Under the pieces are notes generated by a model, which did not search any database, had not been told where the DNA came from, and saw only the letters and a list, made by a program, of their open reading frames with translations. A DNA stretch of 64,000 nucleotides from Flavobacteriaceae bacterium (GTDB taxonomy: Bacteria > Bacteroidota > Bacteroidia > Flavobacteriales > Flavobacteriaceae), in assembly GCA_009926065.1 (NCBI GenBank), contig RFPP01000002.1, forward strand, positions 29,713 through 93,712. Direction: 5' to 3'. Numbering within the stretch: the first letter of the stretch is position 1; the number at the start of each line of letters is the position of its first letter. Positions 8,385 to 34,543 of the stretch are shown one piece after another. The translations under genes and the position numbers were made by a program.

Positions 8385-8402
8385 TTTTCTAAATCATAAA
8401 TA

Positions 8403-9173
8403 ATGGAATTAAAATTAACCCGACCTATTTGCTTTTTTGATCTTGAAACTACTGGTATTGATGTGGCTAAAGACAGAATAGTAGAAATATCAATTTTTAA
8501 GGTTTTTCCCAATGGGAATAAGGAAAGCAAGACGTGGTTGGTAAATCCGACGGTTCCTATCCCACCTCAATCAACTGCGGTTCATGGAATTTCAAATGAG
8601 AAAGTGGCCAACGAACCTACCTTTAATGAACTGGCTCCGGTGATTTATAATATGATTAAGGATAGTGATTTAGCGGGTTATAATTCCGATCGATTTGACA
8701 TTCCTTTATTGGCGGAAGAATTGTTACGAGCTGGAGTTGATTTTGATATGAAAGGACGAGTTTCAGTGGATGTTCAAACGGTATTTCATAAAAAGGAAGA
8801 ACGAACTTTGAGTGCGGCATTGAAATTTTATTGTGGTGAAGATTTGGAGAACGCCCATTCAGCTGAAGCCGATACGATGGCGACTTATGAAATTTTGAAA
8901 GCCCAGTTGGATCGATATTCCGATTTAGATAACGACATAAAAGCTTTATCAGAGTTTACCACAAGAAAAAAGAACGCTGATTTTGCAGGAATGATAGTTT
9001 TTGATGAAGATGGAGATGAGGTTTTTAATTTTGGAAAACACAAAGGTCTAAAGGTAAGTACTGTTTTGGAAGCAGAACCAGGTTATTACAGTTGGATTCA
9101 AAACGCTGATTTTCCATTGTATACCAAGAAAATTCTGACAGCTATTAAGTTAAGAAAATTGAATACAAAATAA
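8403..9173 (+). CDS. DEDDh 3'-5' exonuclease (DNA pol III epsilon-like)
   Basis: FFDLETTG, GYNSDRFD, HSAEADT motifs; C-terminal FGKHKG motif. Confidence 0.9.
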   Translation: MELKLTRPICFFDLETTGIDVAKDRIVEISIFKVFPNGNKESKTWLVNPTVPIPPQSTAVHGISNEKVANEPTFNELAPVIYNMIKDSDLAGYNSDRFDIPLLAEELLRAGVDFDMKGRVSVDVQTVFHKKEERTLSAALKFYCGEDLENAHSAEADTMATYEILKAQLDRYSDLDNDIKALSEFTTRKKNADFAGMIVFDEDGDEVFNFGKHKGLKVSTVLEAEPGYYSWIQNADFPLYTKKILTAIKLRKLNTK

Positions 9174-9203
9174 GAACGATTTAGTTTATTGAAAAAAATA
9201 CCA

Positions 9204-9274
9204 TAGCCCCGATAGTAGAGGAAATCCCTCGCTTTTTGTGCGAGGATTGAAACGAATAGCGGGAAAAAGCTCTA
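9204..9274 (+). ncRNA. Structured intergenic repeat, copy A (probable Flavo-1 RNA motif family)
   Basis: TAGCCCCGATAGTAGAGGAAATCC-[stem-loop]-GGATTGAAACGAATAGCGGGAAAAAGCTCTA; conserved flanks shared with three other copies in the window. Family name is by recall, not by a covariance-model search. Confidence 0.7.
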
Positions 9275-9280
9275 AAAAAA

Positions 9281-9892
9281 ATGAAATTAATTTGTATCGG
9301 TAGGAATTATACCAAGCACATTGAAGAATTAAATAATGAACGTCCTGATGAACCGGTGGTTTTTATGAAGCCAGATTCGGCGATTTTGTTGAAGCAACAC
9401 CCGTTTGTAATACCAGAATTCTCAGAGGATATTCACCATGAATTGGAGGTTATTGTTAAGATTAACAAAGTTGGGAAATGTATTGAACCTAAATTTGCGC
9501 ATAAATATTATGATGAAATTAGTGTTGGAATTGATTTCACCGCGAGAGATTTGCAGCAAAAATTGAAAGACAAAGGACTTCCGTGGGAAAAAGCTAAGGC
9601 ATTTGATGGTTCGGCTGTGATAGGTGATTTTGTTTCAAAAAGTGACTTTAAATCGTTGGATAATCTTAATTTTGAAATGACCAACAACGGAGTTACGGTT
9701 CAAAAAGGCAATACGAGTTTTATGTTGTGGAAAATAGACGAATTGATAGCCTATGTTTCACAATTTTTCACCCTTAAAATCGGTGATATCATATTCACAG
9801 GAACACCTGAAGGGGTTGCTGTTGTTCGTCCAGATGATGTTTTGGAAGGATATTTAGAAGGAAATAAATTGTTTCGAATTCAAGTAAAATAA
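9281..9892 (+). CDS. Fumarylacetoacetate hydrolase family protein
   Basis: ICIGRNY, HHELEV, DFTARDLQ, WEKAKAFD, GDIIFTGTPEGV motifs. Confidence 0.92.
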   Translation: MKLICIGRNYTKHIEELNNERPDEPVVFMKPDSAILLKQHPFVIPEFSEDIHHELEVIVKINKVGKCIEPKFAHKYYDEISVGIDFTARDLQQKLKDKGLPWEKAKAFDGSAVIGDFVSKSDFKSLDNLNFEMTNNGVTVQKGNTSFMLWKIDELIAYVSQFFTLKIGDIIFTGTPEGVAVVRPDDVLEGYLEGNKLFRIQVK

Positions 9893-16031: not shown

Positions 16032-17621
16032 TTATAATGTTAGAATCGTAAAATTAGTATCAAATGGATCTAAATTATTATATAATTTTGAAAAAAATGT
16101 AATTCCATTTTCCAAATAAAACTCAGAAAAATTAGCTTGTCGTTCTTGCAAACTTTGATTTGGAAACAACTCGTTTTGTAATTTGATTACACGCTCTAAT
16201 TCTGAATGGAATTTCTTTTTTTGAGCCTTCAAAAATCGCTTTTCTAAATTTTCTAATCCTTTGATTTGCTTAGCCTCTTGCGCTTTTACCGCTCCTAAAA
16301 AGGATTTATCTGTTTGATTTACAATAGTATGTAAATCTGAGAATTGCTTTTTCAATGCCATTTTTTGCTCTGAAAAATCAATTGGAATTTCAGATAATTC
16401 TTTTACTCTAATATTAATTAATACTTCTTGTTTTGAAAACAATTGTTCCCAACTCAATTGAAGTTTTTCGATCCTTTCTACTTGTTTTTCGGTAACTATA
16501 AGAGCTGAATTTCTGAGCAATAATATAGGAAAAGTACACTGAAAAGCTTTAAATGTTGACTTTAATTCCAACCAATACGCAATTTCTCCACCGCCACCAA
16601 TGTAACATAAATTGGGTAAAATTACTTCTTGATATAAAGGTCTCAGAATAACATTTGGACTAAATCTCTCTGGATTGATTTCTAATAATTCCAATAATTC
16701 ATTTTGAGTAAATGTAATTTTTGTATTATTGATTTTGAAATCTCCTTTTTCGAAAATAATACGTTCTCGTAAATTATCTTCAATATAAAAAAGATTAATA
16801 TTACGAGGATTTACTTGAGTTGGATATTTCTTTAATTGAATTATTGTATCGCTTACATTTTTAAAAGAAGTATTTTGTAAAAGTTCCTCTTTAATATAAG
16901 GAATAAATTGCCTTTTTAATTCGGAATTATCCCCATCAATTATTACTAAACCGTAAGATCCAAAAAGTTCATTTGCTAATTTTCGAGTTGCATTGGTTAA
17001 CGAATCAATATTTGCGTAAGCGCTTTCAAACAGTTTTTTTATTTCATTGGCATTCGAACTACAACCTAGTTCATTCTCAAATACCGATAGTATTTCTTGA
17101 AGTCCATCTGTAGTTAATCTTCCAACCGGCCCTGAACTTTCTTTATTCCATTTGAACTTTTTACCTTTAAAATTAAAGTAATTTATTTCATCAAAATCAT
17201 GGTCTTCAGTAGCCATCCAATAGATTGGTACAAAATTATAAGATGGATACTTCTTCTTTAATTCTTCTGTTAATTTAATGGTTGAGATTATTTTGTAAAG
17301 AAAATACAGTGGCCCTGTAAATAAATTTAACTGATGACCAGTAGTAATTGTGAAAGTGTTTTCTTTCGAAAGTAAAGCAATATTGTTCTTTGTTAATTCC
17401 GATATTGAAATGTTTTCGTATTGTTTATTTAAAACAGAAACTAGTATTTCTCGTGTTTTAGGATTGTAATTTTGCTGTTTTTCCGTTATCTGATTTTCGA
17501 AATTTTCAATTTTTGGAAAACGATTGTAAAATGATTGTAAGCTAGATTCCTGATTTAAATAATCATTCATCATAAGAGTGAAATATCCTGAATTTTGATA
17601 GCTAATACAATCCGTTGGCAT
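16032..17621 (-). CDS. bshC: Bacillithiol biosynthesis cysteine-adding enzyme BshC
   Basis: TTGHQLNLFTGPLY, YWMATEDHDFDEI, FSPNVILRPLYQE, YIGGGGEIAYW, LQERQANF. Confidence 0.92.
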   Translation of the reverse strand: MPTDCISYQNSGYFTLMMNDYLNQESSLQSFYNRFPKIENFENQITEKQQNYNPKTREILVSVLNKQYENISISELTKNNIALLSKENTFTITTGHQLNLFTGPLYFLYKIISTIKLTEELKKKYPSYNFVPIYWMATEDHDFDEINYFNFKGKKFKWNKESSGPVGRLTTDGLQEILSVFENELGCSSNANEIKKLFESAYANIDSLTNATRKLANELFGSYGLVIIDGDNSELKRQFIPYIKEELLQNTSFKNVSDTIIQLKKYPTQVNPRNINLFYIEDNLRERIIFEKGDFKINNTKITFTQNELLELLEINPERFSPNVILRPLYQEVILPNLCYIGGGGEIAYWLELKSTFKAFQCTFPILLLRNSALIVTEKQVERIEKLQLSWEQLFSKQEVLINIRVKELSEIPIDFSEQKMALKKQFSDLHTIVNQTDKSFLGAVKAQEAKQIKGLENLEKRFLKAQKKKFHSELERVIKLQNELFPNQSLQERQANFSEFYLENGITFFSKLYNNLDPFDTNFTILTL

Positions 17622-19335: not shown

Positions 19336-21534
19336 TTGAAAACCAACGTTTTTATTATCACCCCGCCGTTCACCCAACTGAACACCCCATATCCGGCTTC
19401 TGCCTATATTAAAGGTTTTCTAAATACGTTGAATGTTCCAACTTTTCAAGCTGATTTAGGAATTGAGGTGATTTTAGAATTGTTTTCCAAAGAAGGACTT
19501 ATAAATTTGTTCAAAGTTGAAAGTTTGAAGTTGAATCTTGATGAACTTTCAGACAATTCCTCTCGTATTTTAGCGCTACAAGACGAGTACATCAAAACGA
19601 TTGACAGTGTTATTTCTTTTTTGCAAGGAAAAAATCCAACTTTAGCATTGCAAATATGTCAAGGTGATTATTTGCCTGAAGCTTCCCGTTTTAATCAAAT
19701 TGAAGAAATGGATTGGGCTTTTGGAACCATGGGAACTCAAGACAAAGCCAAGCATTTGGCCACTTTATATTTAGAAGATATTTCAGATTATATTGTAGAA
19801 TGTATCGATGAAAATTTTGGATTCAGTCGTTATGCGGAACGTTTGGGCAGGAGCGCCAATTCCTTTGATGAATTGTATGATACTTTAAATCAACAAACTA
19901 CTTATATCGATACCATTTTAATTTCGATATTAAAATCGAAAATTGAAACCATTCAACCGGCATTATTCCTTATTTCTGTTCCATTTCCAGGAAATTTGTA
20001 TGCTGCTTTTCGATGTGCCCAATGGGTGAAAAAAAATCACCCTACTATTAAAATTTCAATGGGCGGTGGATTCCCAAATACTGAACTACGTTCGCTTTCC
20101 GATAAAAGAGTTTTTGAATTTTTCGATTTTATTACCCTTGACGATGGCGAATTACCACTAAAATTACTAATTGACAATTTAAATTTACAAGCTTCTGGGG
20201 AATATAAAAGAACTTTTCTTTTAGAAAATGGCAAAGTGGTTTACAAGAATAATACTTCAAAATCCGATTACAAACAAGCCGAGGTCGGAACTCCTGACTA
20301 TTCCGATTTACTTTTAGATAAATACATTTCTGTAATTGAAATTGTAAATCCAATGCATCGAATGTGGAGCGATGGACGTTGGAATAAACTAACCATGGCG
20401 CACGGTTGTTATTGGGGAAAATGTACTTTTTGTGATGTTTCACTGGATTATATAAAATTATACGAACCCGTTGCAGCCAATATTTTGTGCGATAGAATAG
20501 AACAGTTAATTGCTCAAACGGGACAAAACGGTTTTCACTTTGTTGACGAAGCCGCTCCTCCAGCATTAATGAGAGCGCTAGCTTTAGAAATATTACGGAG
20601 GAAAATAGATGTAACTTGGTGGACCAATATCCGATTTGAAAAGAGTTTTTCTAAAGAGCTATGTCAATTATTGAAAGCCTCTGGTTGTATTGCCGTTTCT
20701 GGCGGATTGGAAGTTGCCTCGGATAGATTATTGGCTCTTATTGATAAAGGAGTAACAGTTGAACAAGTTGCAAAAGTGACCCGAAATTTCACTGAAGCCG
20801 GAGTTATGGTTCATGCCTATTTAATGTATGGTTATCCAACGCAAACAGTTCAAGAAACCGTTGATAGTTTGGAAATGGTGCGTCAGTTATTTGAATCTGA
20901 TGTTATACAATCTGGATTTTGGCACCAATTTGCAATGACCGCCCATAGTCCCATTGGATTAAATCCAGAAAAATTTGGTGTTTTTAAAGATACAGAGGAA
21001 ATAGGAACCTTCGCCAATAATGATATTAATTTTGTTGATTCGACTGGTGTTGACCACAATCAATTTAGTTTTGGGTTAAAGAAATCACTTTACAATTTCA
21101 TGCACGGAATATGTTTTGATTATCCATTACAAGATTGGTTTGATTTTAAAATACCACCAACTACAATTTCAGAAGATTTCATTTATAATGCACTAACTGA
21201 AGAAACAGATTTATCTATCAAGCCGAATTCAAAGGTGATTTGGATAGGAGGAGAGCCACAAGTTGCTAATTTTGTTAAAACCAAAAAAGGAAATTCCTGG
21301 GAAATGAGCACATTGACATTTCACGATAAAAAGGAGTCTTATTCTGTACAATTGAATCGTGAAGAGGGGGATTGGTTAATTGAAACACTCAAGAAAGTTT
21401 CGATTTCAAATACTAAATTAAAGACACTTCAAGAAATTAAATCAGACTTTGAATCTCAATTTGAGAATTTTGAATTGTTTTGGTTTTCTAAGCCAATACT
21501 AACATTGAGAGATTACGGATTATTAATTGTCTAA
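19336..21534 (+). CDS. B12-binding-domain radical SAM protein
   Basis: TTG start; PPFTQLNTPYP N-terminus, GGGFPNTELR, CYWGKCTFC cluster motif, FVDEAAPP, SGGLEVAS, YLMYGYP. Confidence 0.88.
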   Translation: MKTNVFIITPPFTQLNTPYPASAYIKGFLNTLNVPTFQADLGIEVILELFSKEGLINLFKVESLKLNLDELSDNSSRILALQDEYIKTIDSVISFLQGKNPTLALQICQGDYLPEASRFNQIEEMDWAFGTMGTQDKAKHLATLYLEDISDYIVECIDENFGFSRYAERLGRSANSFDELYDTLNQQTTYIDTILISILKSKIETIQPALFLISVPFPGNLYAAFRCAQWVKKNHPTIKISMGGGFPNTELRSLSDKRVFEFFDFITLDDGELPLKLLIDNLNLQASGEYKRTFLLENGKVVYKNNTSKSDYKQAEVGTPDYSDLLLDKYISVIEIVNPMHRMWSDGRWNKLTMAHGCYWGKCTFCDVSLDYIKLYEPVAANILCDRIEQLIAQTGQNGFHFVDEAAPPALMRALALEILRRKIDVTWWTNIRFEKSFSKELCQLLKASGCIAVSGGLEVASDRLLALIDKGVTVEQVAKVTRNFTEAGVMVHAYLMYGYPTQTVQETVDSLEMVRQLFESDVIQSGFWHQFAMTAHSPIGLNPEKFGVFKDTEEIGTFANNDINFVDSTGVDHNQFSFGLKKSLYNFMHGICFDYPLQDWFDFKIPPTTISEDFIYNALTEETDLSIKPNSKVIWIGGEPQVANFVKTKKGNSWEMSTLTFHDKKESYSVQLNREEGDWLIETLKKVSISNTKLKTLQEIKSDFESQFENFELFWFSKPILTLRDYGLLIV

Positions 21535-21572
21535 TAATTAGATAATTGTTTTTTTTTATTGAAATATTATTC

Positions 21573-21580
21573 TATTTTTG
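21573..21580 (+). promoter_or_regulatory. Putative -7 box (TATTTTTG) for ankyrin-DOMON unit
   Basis: TAnnTTTG 18 nt upstream of ATG 21598. Confidence 0.5.
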
Positions 21581-21597
21581 AGACGCGATTCAATCCA

Positions 21598-22119
21598 ATG
21601 AAAAACTACTTTCAAATAGTCCTTTTGCTGCTTCTATGTACTTCTTTGAAAGGACAAGTTAAAAATGTATTCGATGTTGCTCGAAAAGGAACCTTATCAG
21701 AAATACAAAATATCTACAAACAAAATCCAGAACTTGTAAATGCTATTAATGATAATAAAGCTACGCCCTTAATTTTAGCTTGCTATAGAAATAATGAAGC
21801 CGTAGCATTATATTTATCAGATATAGTTTCAAACATAAATTACAATTCTGGCATGGGAACTGCATTGATGGCAGCAATTATGTCGGGAAATAAAGTAATT
21901 ATAGAGAAATTAATTTCAAAAAAAGCAGATTTAGATCAGCAAGATATTCAAGGAAAAACGGCATTAATCTATGCTGCTTTTAATAATAATTTTGAAGTTG
22001 CTCAGTTGCTTGTTAAAGCGGGTGCGAATTCTAAGCTTGCTGATAATGAAAAAAGAACCGCATTAGATTACGCAAAATTTAATAAGAATACCCAGTTAAT
22101 CATATTATTAGATAAATAA
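21598..22119 (+). CDS. Exported ankyrin-repeat protein
   Basis: ATG 21598 gives a Sec signal (MKNYFQIVLLLLLCTSLKG-Q); ankyrin repeats TPLILAC, TALMAAI, TALIYAA, TALDYA. Confidence 0.9.
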   Translation: MKNYFQIVLLLLLCTSLKGQVKNVFDVARKGTLSEIQNIYKQNPELVNAINDNKATPLILACYRNNEAVALYLSDIVSNINYNSGMGTALMAAIMSGNKVIIEKLISKKADLDQQDIQGKTALIYAAFNNNFEVAQLLVKAGANSKLADNEKRTALDYAKFNKNTQLIILLDK

Positions 22120-22144: not shown

Positions 22145-22903
22145 ATGAAAAAACTTTACTTTGCAATTGCCTTATTAGTTGGGCTAAATGTCTCAATGGC
22201 ACAAACAAAATCCACTGGAGTTGTAAATTTAAATAGTTTAATGACTCTAAAAATTGATTTGAATTCAGCCACATCAACTGTTACAATAACACTAACTGGT
22301 CCATCCGACCGATGGTTTGGAATAGGATTTAATGCAACTTCAATGTTTAACGGTACGGATTGTATATACTATACAACCTCATTAGTAGATTCAGTTATAA
22401 CAGGCCAATCTTCACCCTCAACTGATACTACAAACGAATGGACTGTAGTTAGCGATAATATAATATCAGGCACAACAAGGTCTCTTGTAATTACTAGAAA
22501 TTTTGTTGGTGGAATAGGTGATTATACTTTTAATTATAATAATAATACTTTAAATATTATTTGGGCTTATGGATCAAGTGTAACAATGTCACAACATTCA
22601 GGCATAGGTAGAGGCTCGAGTAATTTAGGATTTACACTTGGGGTTCATGATTTCTCTTCTTTAGATAACATTACAATTGCTCCAAATCCTTCTAATGGTA
22701 TTTTCAAAATTACAAAAAATATTCAAACTTCCATTTCTAAAGTTACCGTATTTGATATCAATGGAAAGGTTCTAAAAGTGATTGATTCAGAATTAAGCTT
22801 AGATTCAATACAAATGAATTTATCAGATTTTTCTAAAGGGGTTTATTTTGTAGAAATCAGTAATGATATCGATAAAGTAGTTCGCAAAATAGTAATTGAT
22901 TAA
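22145..22903 (+). CDS. T9SS type-A cargo with DOMON-like domain
   Basis: Signal peptide; WFGIGFNATSM and IIWAYG...QH DOMON strands; C-terminal IAPNPSNGIF...FDINGK...LSDFSKGVYFVEI...RKIVID type-A CTD. Confidence 0.82.
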   Translation: MKKLYFAIALLVGLNVSMAQTKSTGVVNLNSLMTLKIDLNSATSTVTITLTGPSDRWFGIGFNATSMFNGTDCIYYTTSLVDSVITGQSSPSTDTTNEWTVVSDNIISGTTRSLVITRNFVGGIGDYTFNYNNNTLNIIWAYGSSVTMSQHSGIGRGSSNLGFTLGVHDFSSLDNITIAPNPSNGIFKITKNIQTSISKVTVFDINGKVLKVIDSELSLDSIQMNLSDFSKGVYFVEISNDIDKVVRKIVID

Positions 22904-22922
22904 TTCAATTTCTAAAATTTTT

Positions 22923-22956
22923 AAAAACTCTATTTTTTGAAATAGAGTTTTTTTTT
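22923..22956 (+). terminator. Rho-independent terminator after DOMON gene
   Basis: AAAAACTCTATTT / AAATAGAGTTTTT stem followed by a T-run. Confidence 0.75.
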
Positions 22957-23056
22957 GTCATTAATTCAGATTTATTAAGCATAATGAGGTTTCAACCTTA
23001 ATTATTTAATTATGAAAATCTTACCATTTTTAGACTGTTTATGATATTTATTTTAA

Positions 23057-23064
23057 TAAATTTG
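23057..23064 (+). promoter_or_regulatory. Putative -7 box (TAAATTTG) for OB-fold/DUF5777/cytochrome/YceI unit
   Basis: TAnnTTTG 23 nt upstream of ATG 23087. Confidence 0.5.
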
Positions 23065-23086
23065 AATAATATTAATTCAGCTAAGA

Positions 23087-23482
23087 ATGTCTAAGAAAAC
23101 AAAAATAATAGGATTTCTGATTGGAGTAGTTTTGCTAATATTAGTTACTTTAATTTATGTTTTTTATGGAGGTTCAAGAAATATAGCTACCGAAGAAGCT
23201 GAATTTATTATACCATCAAAAGTTATTACCGCTGAATTCACTGCTGATGTTGCTAAAGCTACACTTAACTATTCCGACAAAACTATTGCTGTTTCTGGAA
23301 AAGTAACTGCGGTTTCTGATAGTATTGTTACTATCGATAATACGATAATATGTAATTTTAATATTCCTGATAAAAGTATAAAAACAGATCAATCTGTTTC
23401 CATTAAAGGAAGATTGGTAGGTTATGATGACTTGATGGGTGAGTTAAAATTAGACCAATGTTCAATAAATAAAAACAATTAA
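23087..23482 (+). CDS. Membrane-anchored OB-fold protein (tRNA_anti-like family)
   Basis: N-terminal TM helix; KTIAVSGKV and VSIKGRLVGYDDL OB-fold strands; two Cys. Confidence 0.72.
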   Translation: MSKKTKIIGFLIGVVLLILVTLIYVFYGGSRNIATEEAEFIIPSKVITAEFTADVAKATLNYSDKTIAVSGKVTAVSDSIVTIDNTIICNFNIPDKSIKTDQSVSIKGRLVGYDDLMGELKLDQCSINKNN

Positions 23483-23483
23483 A

Positions 23484-24359
23484 ATGAAAATTAAGAACTT
23501 ATTGTCGATCATTCTAGTCTTTTGTGCTCTCGGTTCTACAAAGGCACAAGATGATTTATTAAACCAATTGGACGCTGGTGCACCAAAACAAGATAATATA
23601 GAAATAGCAGCATTCAAAGGCCTTCAAATTTGCAATATGCAATCCACAAAATTGCCAGGTAAAGGAGAATTTTATTTCATAGTTTCACATCGTTTTGGAG
23701 ATTTAGCACAAGGAATGGAGAATTTTTTCGGATTGGATAATGCTTATACTAAATTAGGAGGAATTTACGGAGTTTCTAATTGGTTTGCTATTAGCGCTTC
23801 ACGACATACTTTTCAAAAAACATTTGAATTGGCTACTAAATATAAAATAGCAAATCAGGAAGAAGAGGGATTTCCGCTTACCTTAGTAGGTTACAATACA
23901 ATGGATATCAATAGTGAATTGAAAAAGAATGATATAATGCCTGGATTACAATTCAATCACCGATTGGCATTTACAACTCAATTATTGGTTTCTAGAAAAT
24001 TCAATGATTCTTTTTCATTTGAAGTAGCTCCAATATACGTTCATAAAAATTTATATGATGGAATTTTAGATCAAAAATCGACCTTATTGTTGGGAACAGG
24101 AGCTAGATATAAAATTGCTAAGCGATTAAGCTTAAATTTAGAATATGCAGCTAGGTTAAATCTTCCAGAAGGATTTGTTTCAAATTATAGCAACCCACTA
24201 ACTTTAGGTTTAGATATTGAAACTGGTGGTCACGTATTCCAATTGGTATTCTCAAACAGTCAAGCTATGAATGACGTAGCTGTATTTACTAATGCAAATG
24301 GGCGTTGGGATGGCACTAAACAATTGTATTTTGGTTTTAATATGTACAGAGTTTTTTAA
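23484..24359 (+). CDS. Outer-membrane beta-barrel, DUF5777-like
   Basis: Signal peptide ending AQDDLL, SHRFG, GLDIETGGHVFQL, amphipathic strands, C-terminal YFGFNMYRVF with terminal Phe. Confidence 0.82.
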   Translation: MKIKNLLSIILVFCALGSTKAQDDLLNQLDAGAPKQDNIEIAAFKGLQICNMQSTKLPGKGEFYFIVSHRFGDLAQGMENFFGLDNAYTKLGGIYGVSNWFAISASRHTFQKTFELATKYKIANQEEEGFPLTLVGYNTMDINSELKKNDIMPGLQFNHRLAFTTQLLVSRKFNDSFSFEVAPIYVHKNLYDGILDQKSTLLLGTGARYKIAKRLSLNLEYAARLNLPEGFVSNYSNPLTLGLDIETGGHVFQLVFSNSQAMNDVAVFTNANGRWDGTKQLYFGFNMYRVF

Positions 24360-24370
24360 AATAAATTATT

Positions 24371-24712
24371 ATGAAAAATTTAAAATTATTTTTATTCGCA
24401 ATTAGCAGTTTGTTTATTGTTTCATGCGAATCTACAACCATTCAGGATATATCAGGTGTAGTTACTAATCCTACTTACAATTTGCATATAAAACCAGTAA
24501 TGACATCAAAATGTACAGGTTGTCATGCTGCAGGAGGTCAATTTCCAAATTTAACTTCCTATTCTGCAGTTAAAAATGCAACTCAAAATGGTGCTTTGTT
24601 GTGCAGGTTAGATGCCTCATGCGGTAACATTATGCCACAATCGGGGAGTTTGCCTCAAGCTACAATTACAATGATTAATACTTGGGCTACCAATAATTTC
24701 CCTGAAAATTAA
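24371..24712 (+). CDS. Monoheme c-type cytochrome lipoprotein
   Basis: Lipobox IVSC (Cys19), CTGCH heme motif (48-52), distal MP motif (Met88), extra Cys78/Cys84 pair. Confidence 0.85.
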   Translation: MKNLKLFLFAISSLFIVSCESTTIQDISGVVTNPTYNLHIKPVMTSKCTGCHAAGGQFPNLTSYSAVKNATQNGALLCRLDASCGNIMPQSGSLPQATITMINTWATNNFPEN

Positions 24713-24718
24713 ATTAAG

Positions 24719-25261
24719 ATGAAAAAAATAATCTTATTTACGTTATTATTAGTTGTAAACATAACTTTGGCGCAAAGATTGTTAACTCGTTCTGGGGAAA
24801 TTAAATTTGATGCATCTATGCCGAATTTAGTTGAAATTGCTGGAAAAAGCAACACTGTTTCAGCAATTTTAGATCTCCCAACTGGACAATTTGCAACAAG
24901 TGTGATAATTAAATCGATACGTTTCAAAATACCTTTAATGGAGGAACATTTTAATGAGAATTATATGGAATCTTCTAAATTTCCTAATTCTACATTTAAA
25001 GGAAAAGTTATAGGTTTTGATGCTACAAAATTATCTATTAATAAAGTTGCTTTTGATATTGAAGGCGATTTAACTATTCATGGAGTAACTAAGAAAGTAA
25101 AAACTAAAATCTATTTATCTTCAAATGGAAGTAAGGTTGCTGCAACAGGAAATTTTACGGTTCATGCACAAGATTATGGAATTGAAATTCCAAAACTTGT
25201 AAAAGATAAATTTGCTGAACAGATTAAAGTTAGCTTTAATTTCGATTTAGATTCAAAATAA
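24719..25261 (+). CDS. YceI family protein
   Basis: Signal peptide; LMEEHFNENYMESSKFPNSTFKG, GDLTIHGVTKKV, DYGIEIP. Confidence 0.9.
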   Translation: MKKIILFTLLLVVNITLAQRLLTRSGEIKFDASMPNLVEIAGKSNTVSAILDLPTGQFATSVIIKSIRFKIPLMEEHFNENYMESSKFPNSTFKGKVIGFDATKLSINKVAFDIEGDLTIHGVTKKVKTKIYLSSNGSKVAATGNFTVHAQDYGIEIPKLVKDKFAEQIKVSFNFDLDSK

Positions 25262-25269
25262 GATTTATT

Positions 25270-25298
25270 AAAAAAACCGCGATAATCGCGGTTTTTTT
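25270..25298. terminator. Bidirectional terminator
   Basis: AAAAAAACCGCGAT-A-ATCGCGGTTTTTTT perfect inverted repeat between convergent genes. Confidence 0.88.
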
Positions 25299-25304
25299 AA
25301 TACT

Positions 25305-25784
25305 CTATCTGTTTCTCCTAGAATAAGCTTCTTGTTGTTTTTTAGCATCTTCAGCAAGCAATTTGTATTTTGCTTTTTGATCTTTATTAAGTAAAATCAT
25401 AATATCAAGATCCATTTTTTCGGCAATTGCTTTAAGCTCATTTGCTTTTTCTTCATTTCCACCTTCTTCTTTTTTTATTATCGCATTTTGCTTTTTTATA
25501 TTTTCAGTGATAATATTAGAAATAGCAATAACCTGAAGTTCATCTAGTTTTAGTTGTTGGTTGAGTCTATCGACCACTTTTTTTACCGTTTCTTCAATTG
25601 CCGGTTCTTTTGGTTGAGATCTTTGAGGTTGCATATTGCGGTTTCCATTCATTCCACCATTCATTCCACCACCCATTCCACCACCCATTCCACCTTGGCC
25701 CATTCCGCCTTGGCCAAATTGAGCTGAAATAGATTGCATTGAAAATAGTAAAATTAAAGTGCAAATTATTTTAATTGATTTCAT
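25305..25784 (-). CDS. Exported helical protein with Gly/Met-rich repeat (Spy/CpxP-like hypothetical)
   Basis: Signal peptide, GQGGMGQGGMGGGMGGGMNGGMNG, then LKLDELQ and LNKDQKAKY helices. Confidence 0.7.
   Translation of the reverse strand: MKSIKIICTLILLFSMQSISAQFGQGGMGQGGMGGGMGGGMNGGMNGNRNMQPQRSQPKEPAIEETVKKVVDRLNQQLKLDELQVIAISNIITENIKKQNAIIKKEEGGNEEKANELKAIAEKMDLDIMILLNKDQKAKYKLLAEDAKKQQEAYSRRNR
25645..25715 (-). repeat. In-frame tandem repeats (12- and 15-nt units) encoding the G/M-rich tract
   Basis: TTCATTCCACCA x2, CCCATTCCACCA x2, CCCATTCCRCCTTGG x2 on the + strand. Confidence 0.8.
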
Positions 25785-27284: not shown

Positions 27285-30200
27285 TTATCTTTTAAGCGTA
27301 AAATGACCTTTTGCGGTTCTACCATCTTCAAAATAAATAGTATACCAATAATCATCTGATGGCAGGGGTTGACCATTAAAAGTTCCATCCCAACCTTTAC
27401 TGATAGGGCTTAATTCTTTCAATAATTTACCATAACGGTCAAAAATATAAATCGAAGTATTATAATTTTTTGTTGTAGTTAAACCTAGAACATTCCAAGT
27501 ATCGTTGAATCCATCAGCATTTGGAGTGAAAAATTTTGGAATACCAATAACATTAATTATTTGAGATGTTGTTCCACAACCATCCAGGTCTTTAACATAA
27601 ACGGTATGAACACCTGGAGCGACATCAGTAAAAATATTTATTGTTTGATATGCATTTGGATAATCTAAACTGAAAACATAATTGCCTAATCCTGTTACAT
27701 TTATTATTACAGTATTATTTTCACTCAAATCCATTATTGTTGGCATTTCAAAATGTGCTGCATCTGAAGCTATTACAGTAATTGTTCTAATTCTAAAACA
27801 ACCTGAAGAATTAATTACTTTAACGGTATAAATCCCTTCGGTATTTACATTTAATGTATAAGATGTTGCAGTTGGTATTACCACTCCATCTTTATACCAT
27901 TCATAAGTATAATTTGTTATTGGAGTTCCATCGGTTATTCCTGCATTCAATAACACAAAGAAAGTTGGATCATTACTACAAACTAATGTTGAAGTTTGTA
28001 ACTCAATCACCGGCACCGGATTTACAGTAAATGTAATTGTTTTAGTTAATTTACAAGTTGGATTAATCGGATTGTAAACAACAATTTTAATGTTCTTTGT
28101 TAATGTTACTGGCAATGGATTAGGCAGTGGTGTTGATAAAAGTACATTATTTTCATCATAATATTCAAACGCCATTCCTGACGGTTGATTAAAAGTTACA
28201 ATATCATGAATCGCTTGCGAAGTAGTAAAATCAAACTGACCGTTTTGCAATGCAGGGTCAGTTTCATCATCACAAATAGTAGTCAACGAAGCAGGTATTG
28301 TAAAATCAATGGGTGATTTATCAACTGTAAATTGAATAGTTGTATCATACCAGCAAGCTTGTGGCGTGGTATTGGTTACAACCGCTCTAATCGTTTGTGA
28401 AGTTGAGGAGAATGTTGCTGGAAATGGACTTGTAATTAAGTTATTATTTGAATCTCTCAGCGGGTTATTTGAAGAATCAAAATAAGTGACCGCAACTCCA
28501 GTTTGCCCTAGTAATAAATCGCTTTCTAAGTTAGCAGTATTAAAATTAAAAATACCGTCTGTATTATCGTCACATTGTCTAGGTATATTCACAGTATGTG
28601 CAAAAGGTTTTGCCTGAACATTTAAAGTAACCCAGGGTCCTAAGCCATAACAAGCATTCGTTAAATCGCTATCTACTCTCACCCAAATATTTTGAGTTGA
28701 GGGATATCCTATGTTTCTATAGTTGGTTAAATTAGTTATCTCATTTTGTTGTGCTAAAGCATCAGCTCTATTTCTGTAATATTTAATAAAATAATTTCCA
28801 GTTGATGGTAATAAAGCTCTAATTGTTGGTTCAGTAGAACTAAAATCGAAGGATGCAACACCATCACGGTCATTATTGTTTGCATTGTTATTACCATTAA
28901 TATCTAAAAAATCATCGCATACCGCAGGCAAAGTAATATTATAGGTACTTGGAATATTTGGCGCAGCAACTTTTAAAGTTATTTTTGCAACTCTATAACA
29001 GCCATTAACAGTAGTTACTCTTGTCCAAATGTACATTAGGCTAGGAGTAGTATTTGTAAAAGCAAGTGGAGTAGTTATTTGATCAAAGGTCGGATTTGCG
29101 TTAGCTCCAGCCAAAGAAGTATAATAAGTAAATGTCTCATTTGCCGAATTAGCTGAAATTTGATTATTATTTACAGTCAAATTGAAAGCGGTAATTGCAT
29201 CTAAATCATCGTCACATTGAACTATTGTAATGTCATTAATTACAGGTAATGGATTTACAATTACCTCCGAAATATTGGTAGAAACAGTTCCACAATTTCC
29301 ATTGGCATAAGTGGCAACACAATAATAATATAAAGTTCCTACTACAGAAGTTATTGGGGTATAACTGAGTGAAGTTGCCCCTGAAATTATTGTTCCTCCT
29401 GTATAGGAATTAACAGTATTAGAATACCATTGATAAGTTGGAGTTCCAGTACCATTAATGAAGGCGGTTGTTAAATTAACCGGAGTGTTATTTATACAAA
29501 TAGACTGACTCGCTAATGGTTGTATGCTAACTGATGGATTATTAACTGTTTGAACATTTACTACAGGACTTGTTACTAAACATCCTAATCCAGATTGAGC
29601 AATTACACAATAGTAAGATTGGGTACCTACATTTGAAGTTGAAGGTGTGTAATTTGCATTTGTTGCTCCTACTATCGAGGGGTTGGGAGAGGTATTATAC
29701 CATTGGTAATAATAAGTTCCCACTCCTCCTGTTGGAGTTACAACCAAATCAGTAGGGGTTGTTCCTTGGCAAATAATTTGATTATTTGGGGTAATCGTTA
29801 CAGTTGGATCAGCGACAACACGAACTAAAGCGGTATTTGTTGGTACACTTCCACAATCTAAACCTGAAAAAGAAACCGTTGCATAATAATAAAAGTCGCC
29901 TCCAATATTGAAAGTTGGAGTGAAATAAGAAGTGTTTGTAGCACCTGAAATAGCATTACCACTGGTTGTATTGTTAGTACTTGTACTGTACCACTGAATT
30001 GATGGTGTTCCTAATCCTCCTGAATAAGCTATCGTAAATGGAGCAACAGCTGCTCCCACACAAATATCTTGAGTTGTTAAAGGTTGAGTGGTTATGGTTT
30101 GAACAGGATTTACAACTAAATTAAAGGTAGTAGTTAAAAAACACCCTGAGGCTGCCATAGTTAACCTTACATAAATTATTCTATTTCCTGTATTTATGGA

Positions 30201-32213
30201 AGTGATACCATTTTGACCCAAATTAGCATCATTCTGAGAGGTATGATAAGTAACATTAACACCAGTTTGTGAACCCAATACTTCACTATTTTTTAATAAT
30301 AAGTTGAAAGTTGCAGTTCCATTTGTCGCACTTCCGTCAACGGCATCATCACATTTTGAAAAATCAGTAATTGCATTTATAATTGGAACTGCTGAATTAT
30401 TTACATTAACTGTAGACGATACTAATGGACAAGCTCCAGTGGCAGGAAAACTATATGTATATATCCCACCTGCGTCTACCGCTGGATTAAAAACTCCAGT
30501 TCCAGAACTTAAAACTGGACTCCATGTACCTCCAACTTCTGCGGTACTTCCTAACAAACTGAATAAATTATAAGAAGGTGTAGTTACACACGATGAGGTA
30601 TTTGTGCTAACTCCAGGATTTTTAATTTGCTGAATAGTTACATTTACTTTTACACTTATAGTAGTTAGTGAAGTATTACAAGATTTTGTAAACGTGTATA
30701 TGTATTCCCCAGGTAAATTAATTGAAGGATCAAAAATATTTCCATTTAGTGGGGCTCCACCCGCTGGAACAGTCCATGTTCCACCTGGTCCAGGATTTCC
30801 ATTAATTACCGTGAATAAATCTCTAGTACTATTGGAACAAACTGTGACATTTGTATCCTGAGGGGTACTTCCAAAACCAGAATAGTAACCTGCAAATCCA
30901 ACAGCTGATCCCTGAAATCCAAAAACCCCAACGGCTAAAGGTCCTGTTGAAGTAATATTAAGATTTCCAGATTGATTTGAAACTCTGTAAGATACCCAGT
31001 CGGTATTTCCCAAAACTGCTTGAGCTTGGGATGTAGGTACAGCAACTCCATTAATTGATATTGTTGCGTTAGAGTAGGTCAACATCATTAAGTCAGTTGT
31101 GTAAGTATTGGTTCCTATTTGATTTACATTGGGAATATTAACAGAATTTTGGAAGAAACAGCTCAAAGGAGGTATAAAATTTAATCCGGAGGTAGCAGTG
31201 TCTGAACCCCCACCTAATAATTGATATGCGAAAACAGGCTTACTTGATCGAACATATATATTACTATTATTTGTGCCTTGATAATAAGAATTAGGAACTA
31301 AATAATATTGGCCAGCATTTAATGTAGTTACCGGAGTTGTACTTCCATTTACAAAAATAGCTGTGTTGTCTTCGTGAGCAACTATTAAGGGATTTTCCAT
31401 AGCAGGACTACCATTTCCTTCTATAAATATATAATCGGTTCCAATTTGGGTTGCAGAAACTATTTGGTCTAAAGTTAGGTCAGCCCGACCATTTGCAATA
31501 CCACCTAGTGCATTTCCAGTATTTACAGAAACAGGTTTATCTGAAGTGATTAAACCGCCTATAATACCATCTAGATTAGCAGTTACATTACTGTATCCAC
31601 TAAATACAATGCACTCTCCAGCATTTAATGTAAATGTTTGTGTGTCGGCAGTTATATTTCCAGCACCACTTGAAAAAATTACCCCAGTATTATAATTTGA
31701 TAAAGTTACCGTAGTATTATTTTCAGTTGCCATAACACTGGCTACAAAGTTTTTTCTATTGTCTTGACTTTCATTAATTGTACATCCTAATCTAAAACTT
31801 GTTCCAATTCCTGGTTTTCCTTTTGAAATAATAGTTTCGGCATGACTTGCATGTCGCATTCTAAAACTAACATAAAAATCTTTTGGTCCTTGAAGAATTA
31901 CTCCTCTTCCTGAAACAACGGTATTTACATCACTAAGACTTAAAAACATTTTTGTAGGTTGTCCAGTACCTATTGTAAAAAAAGCTGGGCTGGTTGCCGA
32001 AATAGTAAACGGAGAACCGGCATAAGGTGTTCCATTTCCATCAGTTGCTGTTACTTGAAACGGAGTAGTTTCATTGGTTGACATGTAGATATATTGGTCA
32101 GAAATAGCAGTGTTATCTCTTGAATGTAAAGGCGGTATCCAGTGTTTATTACTCAACTGAGAAAATGAAATCGCAGTAGCGAATAATAAAAACAATAATG
32201 CTAATTTTTTCAT
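27285..32213 (-). CDS. Large T9SS type-B cargo (IgGFc-binding-like N-terminal domain, Ig-like repeats, gliding-motility CTD); probable adhesin
   Basis: ATG 32213 gives a signal peptide; repeated ICxG...YQWY...GAT...YTP...YYYC and CDD..DG..xF(N/D) modules; CTD IPKFFTPNADGFND...FDRYGK...WDGTFNG...DDYW...GHFTLKR. Confidence 0.9.
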   Translation of the reverse strand: MKKLALLFLLFATAISFSQLSNKHWIPPLHSRDNTAISDQYIYMSTNETTPFQVTATDGNGTPYAGSPFTISATSPAFFTIGTGQPTKMFLSLSDVNTVVSGRGVILQGPKDFYVSFRMRHASHAETIISKGKPGIGTSFRLGCTINESQDNRKNFVASVMATENNTTVTLSNYNTGVIFSSGAGNITADTQTFTLNAGECIVFSGYSNVTANLDGIIGGLITSDKPVSVNTGNALGGIANGRADLTLDQIVSATQIGTDYIFIEGNGSPAMENPLIVAHEDNTAIFVNGSTTPVTTLNAGQYYLVPNSYYQGTNNSNIYVRSSKPVFAYQLLGGGSDTATSGLNFIPPLSCFFQNSVNIPNVNQIGTNTYTTDLMMLTYSNATISINGVAVPTSQAQAVLGNTDWVSYRVSNQSGNLNITSTGPLAVGVFGFQGSAVGFAGYYSGFGSTPQDTNVTVCSNSTRDLFTVINGNPGPGGTWTVPAGGAPLNGNIFDPSINLPGEYIYTFTKSCNTSLTTISVKVNVTIQQIKNPGVSTNTSSCVTTPSYNLFSLLGSTAEVGGTWSPVLSSGTGVFNPAVDAGGIYTYSFPATGACPLVSSTVNVNNSAVPIINAITDFSKCDDAVDGSATNGTATFNLLLKNSEVLGSQTGVNVTYHTSQNDANLGQNGITSINTGNRIIYVRLTMAASGCFLTTTFNLVVNPVQTITTQPLTTQDICVGAAVAPFTIAYSGGLGTPSIQWYSTSTNNTTSGNAISGATNTSYFTPTFNIGGDFYYYATVSFSGLDCGSVPTNTALVRVVADPTVTITPNNQIICQGTTPTDLVVTPTGGVGTYYYQWYNTSPNPSIVGATNANYTPSTSNVGTQSYYCVIAQSGLGCLVTSPVVNVQTVNNPSVSIQPLASQSICINNTPVNLTTAFINGTGTPTYQWYSNTVNSYTGGTIISGATSLSYTPITSVVGTLYYYCVATYANGNCGTVSTNISEVIVNPLPVINDITIVQCDDDLDAITAFNLTVNNNQISANSANETFTYYTSLAGANANPTFDQITTPLAFTNTTPSLMYIWTRVTTVNGCYRVAKITLKVAAPNIPSTYNITLPAVCDDFLDINGNNNANNNDRDGVASFDFSSTEPTIRALLPSTGNYFIKYYRNRADALAQQNEITNLTNYRNIGYPSTQNIWVRVDSDLTNACYGLGPWVTLNVQAKPFAHTVNIPRQCDDNTDGIFNFNTANLESDLLLGQTGVAVTYFDSSNNPLRDSNNNLITSPFPATFSSTSQTIRAVVTNTTPQACWYDTTIQFTVDKSPIDFTIPASLTTICDDETDPALQNGQFDFTTSQAIHDIVTFNQPSGMAFEYYDENNVLLSTPLPNPLPVTLTKNIKIVVYNPINPTCKLTKTITFTVNPVPVIELQTSTLVCSNDPTFFVLLNAGITDGTPITNYTYEWYKDGVVIPTATSYTLNVNTEGIYTVKVINSSGCFRIRTITVIASDAAHFEMPTIMDLSENNTVIINVTGLGNYVFSLDYPNAYQTINIFTDVAPGVHTVYVKDLDGCGTTSQIINVIGIPKFFTPNADGFNDTWNVLGLTTTKNYNTSIYIFDRYGKLLKELSPISKGWDGTFNGQPLPSDDYWYTIYFEDGRTAKGHFTLKR

Positions 32214-32245
32214 AATAGTAATCACAAAGTGTAAAAATAGAATAT

Positions 32246-34543
32246 TTATCTCAATAGAGCAAAGTGTCCTTTAATTATTCTATCATTATTGATAGTTATA
32301 GAAAACCAATAATCATCCGCGGGTATTGGTTGCCCGTTATAGGTTCCATCCCAACCACTTCCTCTAGGGTTGACTTGTGTTATTAATTTTCCATATCTAT
32401 TATATACATAAATTGTCATATTTGGATATTTAGCGCTATTTTTTATAGTCCAAAAATCATTAAAACTATCTCCATTTGGAGTAAAAAATCTAGGATAATC
32501 TAATACAAAAACCTTAGTAGGAGTTGGAATTCCGCATCCATTTATATCTCTAATATAAATTAGGTAACTTCCTTCGGCGACATTATAAAACTGAGGGCTG
32601 TTTTGATAATTGATTCCGTCAATTGAAAATTCATATACACCAATCCCAGTATAATTTATTACTATAGAATTCTCATTCCCTGAAAAATCAACTACGTCAA
32701 CAGATGTAATTGTTGCAGTTCCTGAATTTAATGCAATAAATTTCTTTGTAGCTTGACATCCTATTACATTAGTAACTGTAACTGTATATGTTCCGGGGGA
32801 GCTAATATTTGTATAGCTTGTTCCGACTCCATTACTCCATTGGTAACTTGAAAACCCATTTGATACAGCAATTCGCTTCGGATTTCCGTTGCAGATATAA
32901 ACGGTTTCATCTTCAAATCGTGATGGAGAAAAAACGGCTATTTTTAATATTACTGGGGTAATTCCAAAACAATCGGGACCATTAATAATTCTTGCATAAA
33001 TAGTTTGTTCATTAACTATAGAATTGGTATAATTATTAGGTAAAGGATTTTGTTGAGATAGAGCATCATTATTGGTTAAATAGTATTCTACAACTAATCC
33101 AGTTGGCAATCCAGTTAAAATTTGTGGAGTTGCATCGATATTCAAATTAAATGCTGCAAATCCATCTAGATTTCCATCGCTATCACACTTAATAATTGGA
33201 TTTTGTGGACTAATAATTTGATTTGATATTTGCAAATTTACTGTCGCAAAAGCCACACATCCAAAGGAATTTGAAACTCTACCATAAACAGTATTTGTTG
33301 TTGTATTTCTGTAGCTTCTAGGATTTGTAATCGGATTTATATCTGTAATATTCTCAAAGTAAACCACATTGCTCAGTTGGGGGTTATTGCCAGTAATTAT
33401 CGAATCAACTTTCGTCAAATCAAAAGTTGCCATTCCATCACTATCATCATCACATTGAATAAGTCGTGTATTTGTTAATGATGGTTTTGAGCTGTATTCA
33501 ATGGTCACTTCATCTGTTGCAACGCAGTTAGTTCCAACTAATGTGATTTCTACTTTATAAATTCCAGAATCTCTAACGGTGTATATTGGAGAGGTTTGAC
33601 CTACGATTTCATTATTATTTTTATACCATTTATAGGAATAAAATCCAGGAATTGTTGCGTCTAGGGTATAAGTGTCGCCTTCGCAAATAGGATTATTAGT
33701 TGCAATTAATCTATCAGAACCTAAATTTGCACCAACATTAAAACTATTTGCCCCAAGAAAAATTGCTGAATCATAGAGATTGTTTCCTTGGTCAGCAATT
33801 ACTAATTTTATATGATATGGAGTTCCTGGAACTACATTGGCCTCAGCCTTCATAATAATAGTTTGACCGTTAAAATTGGTAGGGTGATTGGTTCCGTTAA
33901 ATGCATCAAAATAGGATTGATTTGCGGGAGGACAAATACTTCCGCTTCCTCTTACTGTATTTATTTTCACAGGAATATTTGTACCTGGAACAATAGCTAA
34001 ATTTTGATAGGGTGTTGAGTTGTCTATTGGTTTCAATAAGAAAGCAAACCCATCTGTATAGTTACATTGGTTAGCTGTAGCATTCAATAAATATTGTTCT
34101 GATGAAAAGATATAATCGAAACTTACTTTATTAGTTATTGGAACGAAGTCAAATTCTAATACAGTTGCATTTATCGAATTTGAAATTCCAAGTGCCGATT
34201 CTAAATCTGAATCACCAAGCCAGTTGGTGCCACCTTGACTCAATATAAAACTATTGGGACCAACCGCAGATGCTGCCCTACCCGTGCTCAATATAATTCC
34301 CTGAGAAAATGGAAAATTGCTGGTTCCAGAATTGAAATAACCATAACTATTTTGACCTCCGCTAAAGGGGTCTCCACTAACAGAAAAATTACTTACGTTA
34401 GCACATGGACTATTGCCAACCAACACGTTTTGCACTAATTGTTGTGCAGTATAAGTATCGTTAACTTGAATGTACTGGGCGTTAATTGCTCTTGAAAAGC
34501 AAATTAAAAGTATGAAATAGAGGGATTTTTGTGTAATTTTCAT
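32246..34543 (-). CDS. T9SS type-B cargo with choice-of-anchor-L-like N-terminal domain
   Basis: Signal peptide; GIILSTG, VLEFDFVP, YTDGFAFLL, HIKLVIADQG; CTD YPRFFTPNGDSFND...WDGTYNG...DDYWF...GHFALLR. Confidence 0.88.
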   Translation of the reverse strand: MKITQKSLYFILLICFSRAINAQYIQVNDTYTAQQLVQNVLVGNSPCANVSNFSVSGDPFSGGQNSYGYFNSGTSNFPFSQGIILSTGRAASAVGPNSFILSQGGTNWLGDSDLESALGISNSINATVLEFDFVPITNKVSFDYIFSSEQYLLNATANQCNYTDGFAFLLKPIDNSTPYQNLAIVPGTNIPVKINTVRGSGSICPPANQSYFDAFNGTNHPTNFNGQTIIMKAEANVVPGTPYHIKLVIADQGNNLYDSAIFLGANSFNVGANLGSDRLIATNNPICEGDTYTLDATIPGFYSYKWYKNNNEIVGQTSPIYTVRDSGIYKVEITLVGTNCVATDEVTIEYSSKPSLTNTRLIQCDDDSDGMATFDLTKVDSIITGNNPQLSNVVYFENITDINPITNPRSYRNTTTNTVYGRVSNSFGCVAFATVNLQISNQIISPQNPIIKCDSDGNLDGFAAFNLNIDATPQILTGLPTGLVVEYYLTNNDALSQQNPLPNNYTNSIVNEQTIYARIINGPDCFGITPVILKIAVFSPSRFEDETVYICNGNPKRIAVSNGFSSYQWSNGVGTSYTNISSPGTYTVTVTNVIGCQATKKFIALNSGTATITSVDVVDFSGNENSIVINYTGIGVYEFSIDGINYQNSPQFYNVAEGSYLIYIRDINGCGIPTPTKVFVLDYPRFFTPNGDSFNDFWTIKNSAKYPNMTIYVYNRYGKLITQVNPRGSGWDGTYNGQPIPADDYWFSITINNDRIIKGHFALLR

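Follow-up and report, generated by a model that had tools for sequence, protein, structure and literature searches.

The outer-membrane barrels of the best described electron conduits differ in size, those of MtrB, PioB and MtoB having 26 strands and that of Cyc2 about 16-17 (PMC10654088). In MtrCAB, PioAB and MtoAB the barrel is encoded beside c-type cytochromes, one of them a lipoprotein, and encloses a decaheme cytochrome; Cyc2 and Cyc572 of iron oxidisers combine one heme per unit with a barrel of modest size, Cyc2 being one polypeptide with an N-terminal CxxCH motif. Bacteroidota are abundant in soils, waters and guts, and to our knowledge no route has been described by which electrons travel to or from their cell surface. 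We report here a gene set from a Flavobacteriaceae bacterium (assembly GCA_009926065.1, contig RFPP01000002.1, positions 29,713 to 93,712; this stretch of 64,000 nt is called the window, and its first letter is position 1) in which the gene for an outer-membrane barrel of the DUF5777 family (Pfam PF19089) is followed by one for a 113-residue lipoprotein with the heme-attachment motif CTGCH. An earlier note on this DNA had seen in these two genes a possible minimal porin-cytochrome unit. The pairing is real. The best of the explanations considered, on which we judge the balance to be even, makes the two proteins subunits of a conserved redox module of Bacteroidota that is associated with the outer membrane and lies wholly outside the cytoplasm. 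The two-part unit itself does not hold up, as the module has four to six parts and is not a pair, with YceI and OB-fold proteins as tighter neighbours. Its core consists of one or two c-type cytochrome lipoproteins, possibly PSCyt1-like, a membrane-anchored OB-fold protein, usually a YceI-family protein and the 12-strand DUF5777 barrel, to which the Flavobacteriales add a periplasmic ankyrin-repeat protein and a DOMON protein secreted by the type IX secretion system (T9SS), or in some marine genera a cupredoxin instead. The component families are all catalogued, but the gene set itself is undescribed in the literature searched, which yielded no mention either of it or of DUF5777/PF19089.

The locus resembles MtrCAB, PioAB and MtoAB in that a barrel is encoded beside a c-type cytochrome that is a lipoprotein, all products are extracytoplasmic, and a redox role at the outer membrane is plausible. 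It differs from them in its barrel, which is modelled with 12 strands and belongs to PF19089, in having one predicted heme per cytochrome domain, and in its YceI, OB-fold, ankyrin and T9SS partners, which have no counterparts in those systems. No 26-strand barrel of the MtrB/PioB type is present, and the lipoprotein, with one CxxCH in 113 residues, is not multiheme. The likeness to Cyc2 and Cyc572 is that of a single heme per unit with a modest barrel, but here the lipoprotein is separate and the barrel contains no CxxCH, so that the two are not joined in one polypeptide. The Cyc2 layout is mimicked by a single fusion (P0286), in which a Reeler/choice-of-anchor-V domain with a CTECH motif lies N-terminal to a DUF5777 barrel; it was considered as Rosetta-stone evidence and given little weight, being a singleton cluster on contigs of less than 4 kb.

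The closest analogue of the cytochrome-YceI pair is in Cellvibrio japonicus, where Cbp2D and Cbp2E have a YceI-like X158 ubiquinone-binding domain fused to c-type cytochrome domains, and where an isolated cytochrome domain of the Cbp2D system reduces lytic polysaccharide monooxygenases (PMC8981238). Both arrangements bring together, outside the cytoplasm, a YceI-type polyisoprenoid- or quinone-binding domain and a monoheme cytochrome c, although Cbp2D is one polypeptide of several domains, among them a carbohydrate-binding module, and comes without a barrel, whereas here the genes are separate and there is no carbohydrate-binding module; a profile search of the PDB found no detectable sequence similarity between the window cytochrome and a solved cytochrome domain of Cbp2D. 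For the DOMON end of the module the closest analogues are eukaryotic. In the DOMON/Reeler-cytochrome b561 proteins, in AIR12 and in the cytochrome domain of cellobiose dehydrogenase, an electron path ends, outside the membrane, in a DOMON domain in which a methionine and a histidine are conserved. Here too a methionine and a histidine of the DOMON domain are conserved, but the membrane step in those systems is a cytochrome b561, or the partner is a soluble flavoenzyme, whereas here the DOMON protein is exported by T9SS and encoded beside a barrel, a cytochrome c and a YceI protein. The barrel taken alone resembles NanC, KdgM, FapF, OmpG and COG4313 in strand number, size and the predicted charge of its lumen, but none of these is linked to cytochromes.

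The association of these genes was examined in a scan of one genome per species, which gave at least 595 DUF5777 loci; of these the closest 80 entered the analysis, all from Flavobacteriales and with barrels 42-87% identical. The window proteins served as queries against the open reading frames (ORFs) of the loci, followed by profiles made from the matches, and a partner was scored as present when found within 4 kb in the 73 loci that have at least 3 kb on both flanks. By this measure the cytochrome accompanies the barrel in 72 of the 73 loci, YceI in 70 and the OB-fold protein in 55, and the barrel-cytochrome pairing is thus far beyond chance. Same-strand adjacency, surveyed over 86 loci, was found for cytochrome and YceI in 77 of the 80 loci that have both, for barrel and cytochrome in 56 loci and for barrel and OB gene in 48; the tightest partner of the cytochrome is YceI and that of the barrel is the OB protein. 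A true DOMON orthologue, counted with the N-terminal domain alone so as to avoid matches to the common T9SS tail, occurs in 33 of the 86 loci, and the ankyrin and DOMON genes are adjacent in 33 of the 34 loci that have the former. The order of the genes is shuffled, the cytochrome-YceI pair often being on the opposite strand and divergent from OB-barrel, and the ankyrin-DOMON pair lying upstream, downstream or between; such variable order and strand argue for selection rather than inherited synteny. An orthologous cluster is carried by Flavobacterium johnsoniae (L029).

The pairing also extends beyond the Flavobacteriales. All five distant Bacteroidota loci (L082-L086, from Bacteroidales-like and unclassified metagenome-assembled genomes, with barrels about 37% identical) have a cytochrome beside the barrel, in the form of a two-domain cytochrome and/or a monoheme lipoprotein of about 120 residues of the same family; OB is found in four of the five and YceI in two, and DUF5777 follows, whereas neither DOMON nor ankyrin genes were found in these five. 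DUF5777 homologues as a whole form more than 7,300 clusters at 90% identity and 1,493 at 50%.

The earlier note had called the barrel DUF5777-like, and the assignment is borne out by a match of 280 bits that covers profile positions 1-247 of 247; the protein also has a signal peptide. Its AlphaFold2 model, built from a 37-sequence alignment (predicted local distance difference test, pLDDT, 89.9), has 12 strands, joined on one side by long loops and on the opposite side by tight turns. When compared with the PDB by Foldseek, all matches are outer-membrane barrels, the best being FapF, NanC, KdgM, OmpG and COG4313 (12-14 strands), with template-modelling (TM) scores of about 0.5 normalized to the query and 10-14% identity; normalized to the target, NanC and KdgM score 0.68-0.78. 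Seven residues (H69, F71, R107, Q125, T247, H250 and R289) are invariant among 37 sequences reaching down to 29% identity. The segment SHRFG, at residues 68-72, which the earlier note thought invariant and possibly lining the lumen, is so only in part: H69 and F71 are invariant and R70 and G72 are kept in at least 90%, but S68 is variable, and of these Arg70 is predicted to face the lumen whereas His69 and Phe71 are predicted to face the lipid.

Orientations of barrel side chains were taken from the strand-by-strand alternation of hydrophobicity over the alignment and not from coordinates. On this basis the predicted lumen-facing conserved residues include ten arginines and lysines (R70, K90, R107, K112, K119, R160, R171, R208, K210 and R289) and four acidic residues (E115, E220, D244 and E246). 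His69, Phe71 and His250 have the same parity as the hydrophobic residues on the lipid side, and since His69 and His250 would in addition lie at opposite ends of the barrel, a bis-histidine pair is unlikely; a heme or metal site in the lumen formed by His69, His187 and His250 was considered and is doubtful on the same grounds. The only cysteines are Cys14 and Cys50. An N-terminal segment, residues 44-62, is confidently modelled and may occlude the lumen. We note that one locus (L076, 9687-11572) contains a second, paralogous OB-YceI-DUF5777 set that lacks a cytochrome, and that the barrel of this set, the single example of its kind, is without equivalents of both His69 and His250, the histidines of HRFG and ETGGH having been lost (SVNTRFWN and NWELTDLMLQF stand in their place). 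A lipoprotein with four lamin-tail-domain repeats (7258-9339) is encoded between the two OB-YceI-DUF5777 sets of this locus.

The 113-residue protein has all of the features that had been listed for it, namely a signal peptide ending in the lipobox IVSC (Cys19), a single CxxCH (CTGCH, residues 48-52), Cys78, Cys84 and Met88-Pro89, and C48, C51, H52, C78, C84, M88 and P89 are invariant in 20 close homologues (47-78% identical). Farther out, CxxCH is kept in 82 of 83 orthologues from the 80 Flavobacteriales loci, and Met-Pro persists, distant orthologues included. Only the closest Flavobacterium clade has the Cys78/Cys84 pair, which is missing from Chryseobacterium and the marine genera and is thereby ruled out as a defining redox disulfide. 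No Pfam family matches the protein above its cut-off, Cytochrome_CBB3 and PccH falling below; PSCyt1 (PF07635) gives no match at E <=0.1 in the window protein, and distant orthologues show precomputed matches recorded as faint. A profile of the family finds cytochrome c6 in the PDB at E-values of 0.0036-0.013 over an alignment that spans both CxxCH and Met-Pro. AlphaFold2 models the protein with four helices (pLDDT 75.6), CxxCH lying where the first of them (36-49) ends, and cytochromes c6 again rank first in a Foldseek search, although not significantly so (E >=0.64, TM 0.3-0.4). From motif and conservation we accept the protein as a class-I-like His/Met monoheme cytochrome with predicted heme attachment. 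In L057 (5178-5495) and in the first domain of the 225-residue protein of L084 (4360-5037) the motif CxxCH is replaced by C-x4-CH, and tandem two-domain (diheme) lipoproteins are found in distant lineages and in Lutibacter (L072, 4226-5020, and L084).

The mature N-terminus of the cytochrome family has the motif C-x-S-x-T-Y-[ED]-[DE]-[IL], with acidic residues at +7/+8 in 63-78% of 81 sequences, and starts of the type C-x-x-x-N-x-[ED]-E-L are seen in distant lineages; the window protein reads C-E-S-T-T-I-Q-D after its lipobox. The export signal of Bacteroidota surface lipoproteins has acidic residues at about +3 to +5 (C-X-K-(D/E)2, SDDDD, SDDFE; PMC5080379), whereas those of the cytochrome family lie at +2 (43%) and +7/+8. 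The linker between the lipidated cysteine and CxxCH varies from 29 to 76 residues across the family. In some Flavobacterium (L017, L023-L025 and L027) it is expanded by Pro/Thr/Asn or Gly/Ser/Thr repeats by up to about 45 residues, which suggests that the distance from the lipid anchor at which the heme domain works is not fixed.

Among the partners, the OB protein is anchored in the membrane by its N-terminus, and its OB-fold (tRNA_anti-like) domain is predicted to be on the periplasmic side; the score of the protein against PF12869 is 19.8 bits, under the cut-off of 23.5, and the recorded PF12869 matches of distant orthologues have E <=1e-5. The YceI protein, periplasmic and lipocalin-like, matches PF04264 above the cut-off and a YceI structure in the PDB (5ixg) with an E-value of 2e-4. 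The DOMON domain matches PF03351 marginally (33.7 bits against a cut-off of 32.7), and its Met67 and His151, invariant in all 34 orthologues, are the ligand pair expected of heme-b-binding DOMON domains. Neither it nor the OB protein has sequence relatives among solved structures, and no alignment of the window DOMON to any solved heme-binding DOMON was obtained. The DOMON protein is a candidate surface or extracellular carrier of b-type heme.

In six loci of marine Flavobacteriaceae the DOMON protein is replaced by a T9SS-tailed cupredoxin of the plastocyanin/azurin family with a C-x2-H-x2-M copper loop, usually encoded between the OB and barrel genes; PF00127 was matched above its cut-off in both of the two loci scanned. 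The recruitment of two different pure electron carriers as secreted cargo is the strongest indication that the module is concerned with redox chemistry and that it reaches the cell surface. Other T9SS cargo is also encoded beside the module, either an immunoglobulin (Ig)-like protein of about 290 residues or a lamin-tail-domain (LTD)-like protein of about 250 residues. In all 15 loci of the Chryseobacterium type the OB gene is replaced by one for a Crp/Fnr-family regulator, directly 5' of the barrel gene; these regulators have no obvious N-terminal cluster of cysteines.

The window genes of the module (Table 1) encode products that each have a signal peptide, a lipobox, a membrane anchor or a T9SS tail, and are thus extracytoplasmic. 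The coordinates of the earlier note are exact, as are its spacings of 1 nt between the OB and barrel genes and 11 nt between those of the barrel and the lipoprotein; a further 6 nt separate the lipoprotein and YceI genes, and the barrel and YceI genes both open with ATG. The ankyrin ORF as listed opens at a TTG codon, but the ATG at 21598 (MKNYFQIV..., with a signal peptide) is the likelier start. A hairpin after the DOMON gene is likely to be an intrinsic terminator dividing ankyrin-DOMON from OB-barrel-cytochrome-YceI, and that beyond YceI is the predicted terminator of the operon. A candidate promoter box, TAAATTTG, sits 23 nt 5' of the OB start codon and was labelled by its match to TAnnTTTG, which we take to be the Bacteroidetes -7 promoter consensus. 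The window comes from a freshwater Flavobacterium, and in one freshwater metatranscriptome a single contig of 2206 nt from a relative about 93% identical spans 22875-25079, from 5' of OB into YceI, and the end of the ankyrin gene together with DOMON is on a separate, deeper contig, the break between them falling at the first hairpin; such contigs may include some carry-over of DNA. Contigs and hairpins are consistent with each other, and OB-barrel-cytochrome-YceI looks like one transcription unit, with ankyrin-DOMON separate from it.

Table 1. Features of the module in the window, and positions within other loci of genes found beside it
Feature	Position	Strand	Evidence or remark
Periplasmic ankyrin-repeat protein gene	21559..22119	+	Pfam Ank_2, E 3.7e-20
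Secreted DOMON protein gene, T9SS C-terminal sorting domain	22145..22903	+	DOMON PF03351; Por_Secre_tail, E 1.2e-14
13-bp AT-rich hairpin, then nine-T run	22923..22951	+	RNAfold, -11.2 kcal/mol
TAAATTTG, match to -7 promoter box TAnnTTTG	23057..23064	+	Pattern match; candidate promoter only
OB-fold protein gene, 131 aa	23087..23482	+	Ends TAA; PF12869 below cut-off
DUF5777 outer-membrane barrel gene, 291 aa	23484..24359	+	PF19089, E 1.6e-83
Monoheme c-type cytochrome lipoprotein gene, 113 aa	24371..24712	+	Lipobox, CTGCH, Met-Pro
YceI-family gene, 180 aa	24719..25261	+	PF04264, E 2.3e-17
Strong 17-bp hairpin flanked by T and A runs, between convergent genes	25266..25302	.	Terminator scan; RNAfold, -20.5 kcal/mol
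Cupredoxins, other loci	L048 5397-5966; L069 5357-5947; L081 5357-5950; L056 6942-7520; also L058, L061		Usually between OB and barrel genes
Ig-like T9SS cargo, other loci	L004 3071-3943; L007 7871-8743; L010 7834-8649; L014, L018, L021		
LTD-like T9SS cargo, other loci	L047 5173-5928; L065, L075		
Crp/Fnr regulators, other loci	L030-L042, L046, L055, about 5150-5890 in each	same as barrel	

A scheme for how such a redox module could work would have the His/Met c-heme domain tethered to its lipid anchor by a flexible linker at least about 30 residues long, from which it would trade electrons with periplasmic carriers on the one hand and with a T9SS-exported carrier of heme b or copper at the cell surface on the other. 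YceI may hold an isoprenoid quinone, by analogy with the YceI-cytochrome c fusions Cbp2D and Cbp2E, the DOMON or cupredoxin cargo would form the outer end of the chain, and the barrel would be an outer-membrane dock or a narrow polar passage and not a sheath around the cytochrome. A stronger version is that DUF5777, the cytochrome lipoprotein or lipoproteins, OB and YceI, together with the T9SS DOMON or cupredoxin, make up a phylum-wide pathway for electrons across the outer membrane, built of single-cofactor proteins and a 12-strand barrel. Electrons could then cross along a lipoprotein linker that runs through the barrel, or with quinone delivered by YceI, and MtrCAB and Cyc2 would be joined by a third architecture; we hold this version to be unlikely, though with a real chance of being right. 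Several points weigh against a redox module at the outer membrane. No inner-membrane quinol dehydrogenase and no catalytic enzyme are encoded in it, the modelled 12-strand barrel, without a cofactor motif, offers no obvious route for electrons across a membrane of about 4 nm, and the binding of heme, quinone and copper by its proteins is predicted. The cytochrome assignment itself comes from motifs and a borderline profile match (E 0.004), with non-significant Foldseek results, and the loci of the distant lineages, sampled thinly with five, hold no T9SS carrier, the 80 close loci being in turn a part of at least 595.

Were electrons indeed to pass through the outer membrane or along it, a role would be found for a widespread domain that has had none assigned, a tie would be drawn between T9SS and redox-carrier export, and F. 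johnsoniae would offer a genetically tractable test bed; the process could bear on iron acquisition, on the use of humic substances and minerals, and on the supply of electrons to extracellular oxidative enzymes. Should the barrel prove instead to be a channel whose accessories work in the periplasm, the outcome would still include the definition of a conserved operon and of a class of function for DUF5777.

The channel explanation holds that the barrel is narrow and specific, its solute being perhaps an anion or metal ion, or else some hydrophobic molecule destined for YceI, and that the cytochrome stays in the periplasm so that no electrons cross the outer membrane. We think it unlikely, although it draws on the closest structures of the barrel, which are small specific channels, on predicted lumen positions occupied by conserved charged residues, mostly arginine and lysine, on the nature of YceI proteins as lipid carriers and on the cytochrome-less OB-YceI-barrel set of L076. 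It would leave the repeated recruitment of T9SS electron carriers unexplained and the imported solute without a catalytic enzyme in the module to act on it, since monoheme His/Met cytochromes are carriers and not catalysts, and the barrel's segment 44-62 may occlude the very passage that it requires. The basic lumen has also a place in an arrangement like that of RcsF with OmpA, OmpC and OmpF, in which the acidic N-terminus and linker of the cytochrome would pass through or dock in the barrel, leaving the lipid anchor and the heme domain on opposite faces with the heme beside the T9SS carrier. The conserved acidic motif, the long linker that follows it and the comparable starts in distant lineages are in keeping with such threading, but the case is purely inferential, the acidic residues do not fall where the export signal defined by experiment has them (PMC5080379), and the lumen may already be filled by the barrel's own N-terminal segment; we consider it improbable.

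The idea of the earlier note in its literal form, that the folded monoheme lipoprotein fills the barrel as a plug and conducts electrons through it as a minimal porin-cytochrome conduit, is the least probable of the explanations considered. The near-universal co-occurrence of the two genes, their position as same-strand neighbours in 56 of 86 loci and the one known fusion of a CxxCH domain to a barrel speak for it. However, a folded cytochrome cannot sit in a barrel of 12 strands, as compared with about 16-17 in Cyc2 and 26 in MtrB, with conserved charged residues predicted to face its lumen: by geometry, a four-helix heme domain of about 75 residues does not fit into so narrow a space. Nor is the membrane bridgeable by one heme, and in many genomes the cytochrome is transcribed with YceI divergently, away from the barrel, while the fusion is a singleton. 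A role in envelope homeostasis or in defence against stress (oxidized lipids, quinones or reactive oxygen), with the cytochrome as a sensor or auxiliary reductant, seems to us very doubtful. The presence of the module in both aerobic and anaerobic lineages of Bacteroidota suggests a housekeeping role, members of the YceI family have been tied to stress and to the capture of hydrophobic compounds, and the Crp/Fnr-type regulator stands 5' in all of the Chryseobacterium-type loci; in Pseudomonas aeruginosa, full activity of a heme catalase requires a periplasmic ankyrin protein. Against this, the module is without a peroxidase, thiol-redox or repair enzyme, and the secreted carriers would again go unexplained.

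The genes that flank the module in the window are not parts of it. BshC, NDK, a hydrolase, radical-SAM enzymes and CHU_C adhesins were considered as members and rejected, as the flanks differ at the orthologous cluster of F. psychrotolerans. The bacillithiol-synthesis gene bshC lies at 16032-17621 (- strand) and a gene for a 732-residue radical-SAM protein (19336-21534, + strand) is just 5' of the module; neither is kept there in other genomes. Convergent with YceI is a gene (25305-25784, - strand) for a secreted protein of 159 residues, in which a stretch rich in Gly and Met, GQGGMGQGGMGGGMGGGMNGGMNG, precedes a charged helical region; the protein matches no family, and its gene is not conserved beside the module in F. 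psychrotolerans. Farther along on the - strand are the genes for two large proteins of 1646 and 765 residues (27285-32225 and 32246-34543), which have CHU_C type IX secretion signals and are probably surface adhesins, the larger also carrying an IgGFc-binding-like domain.

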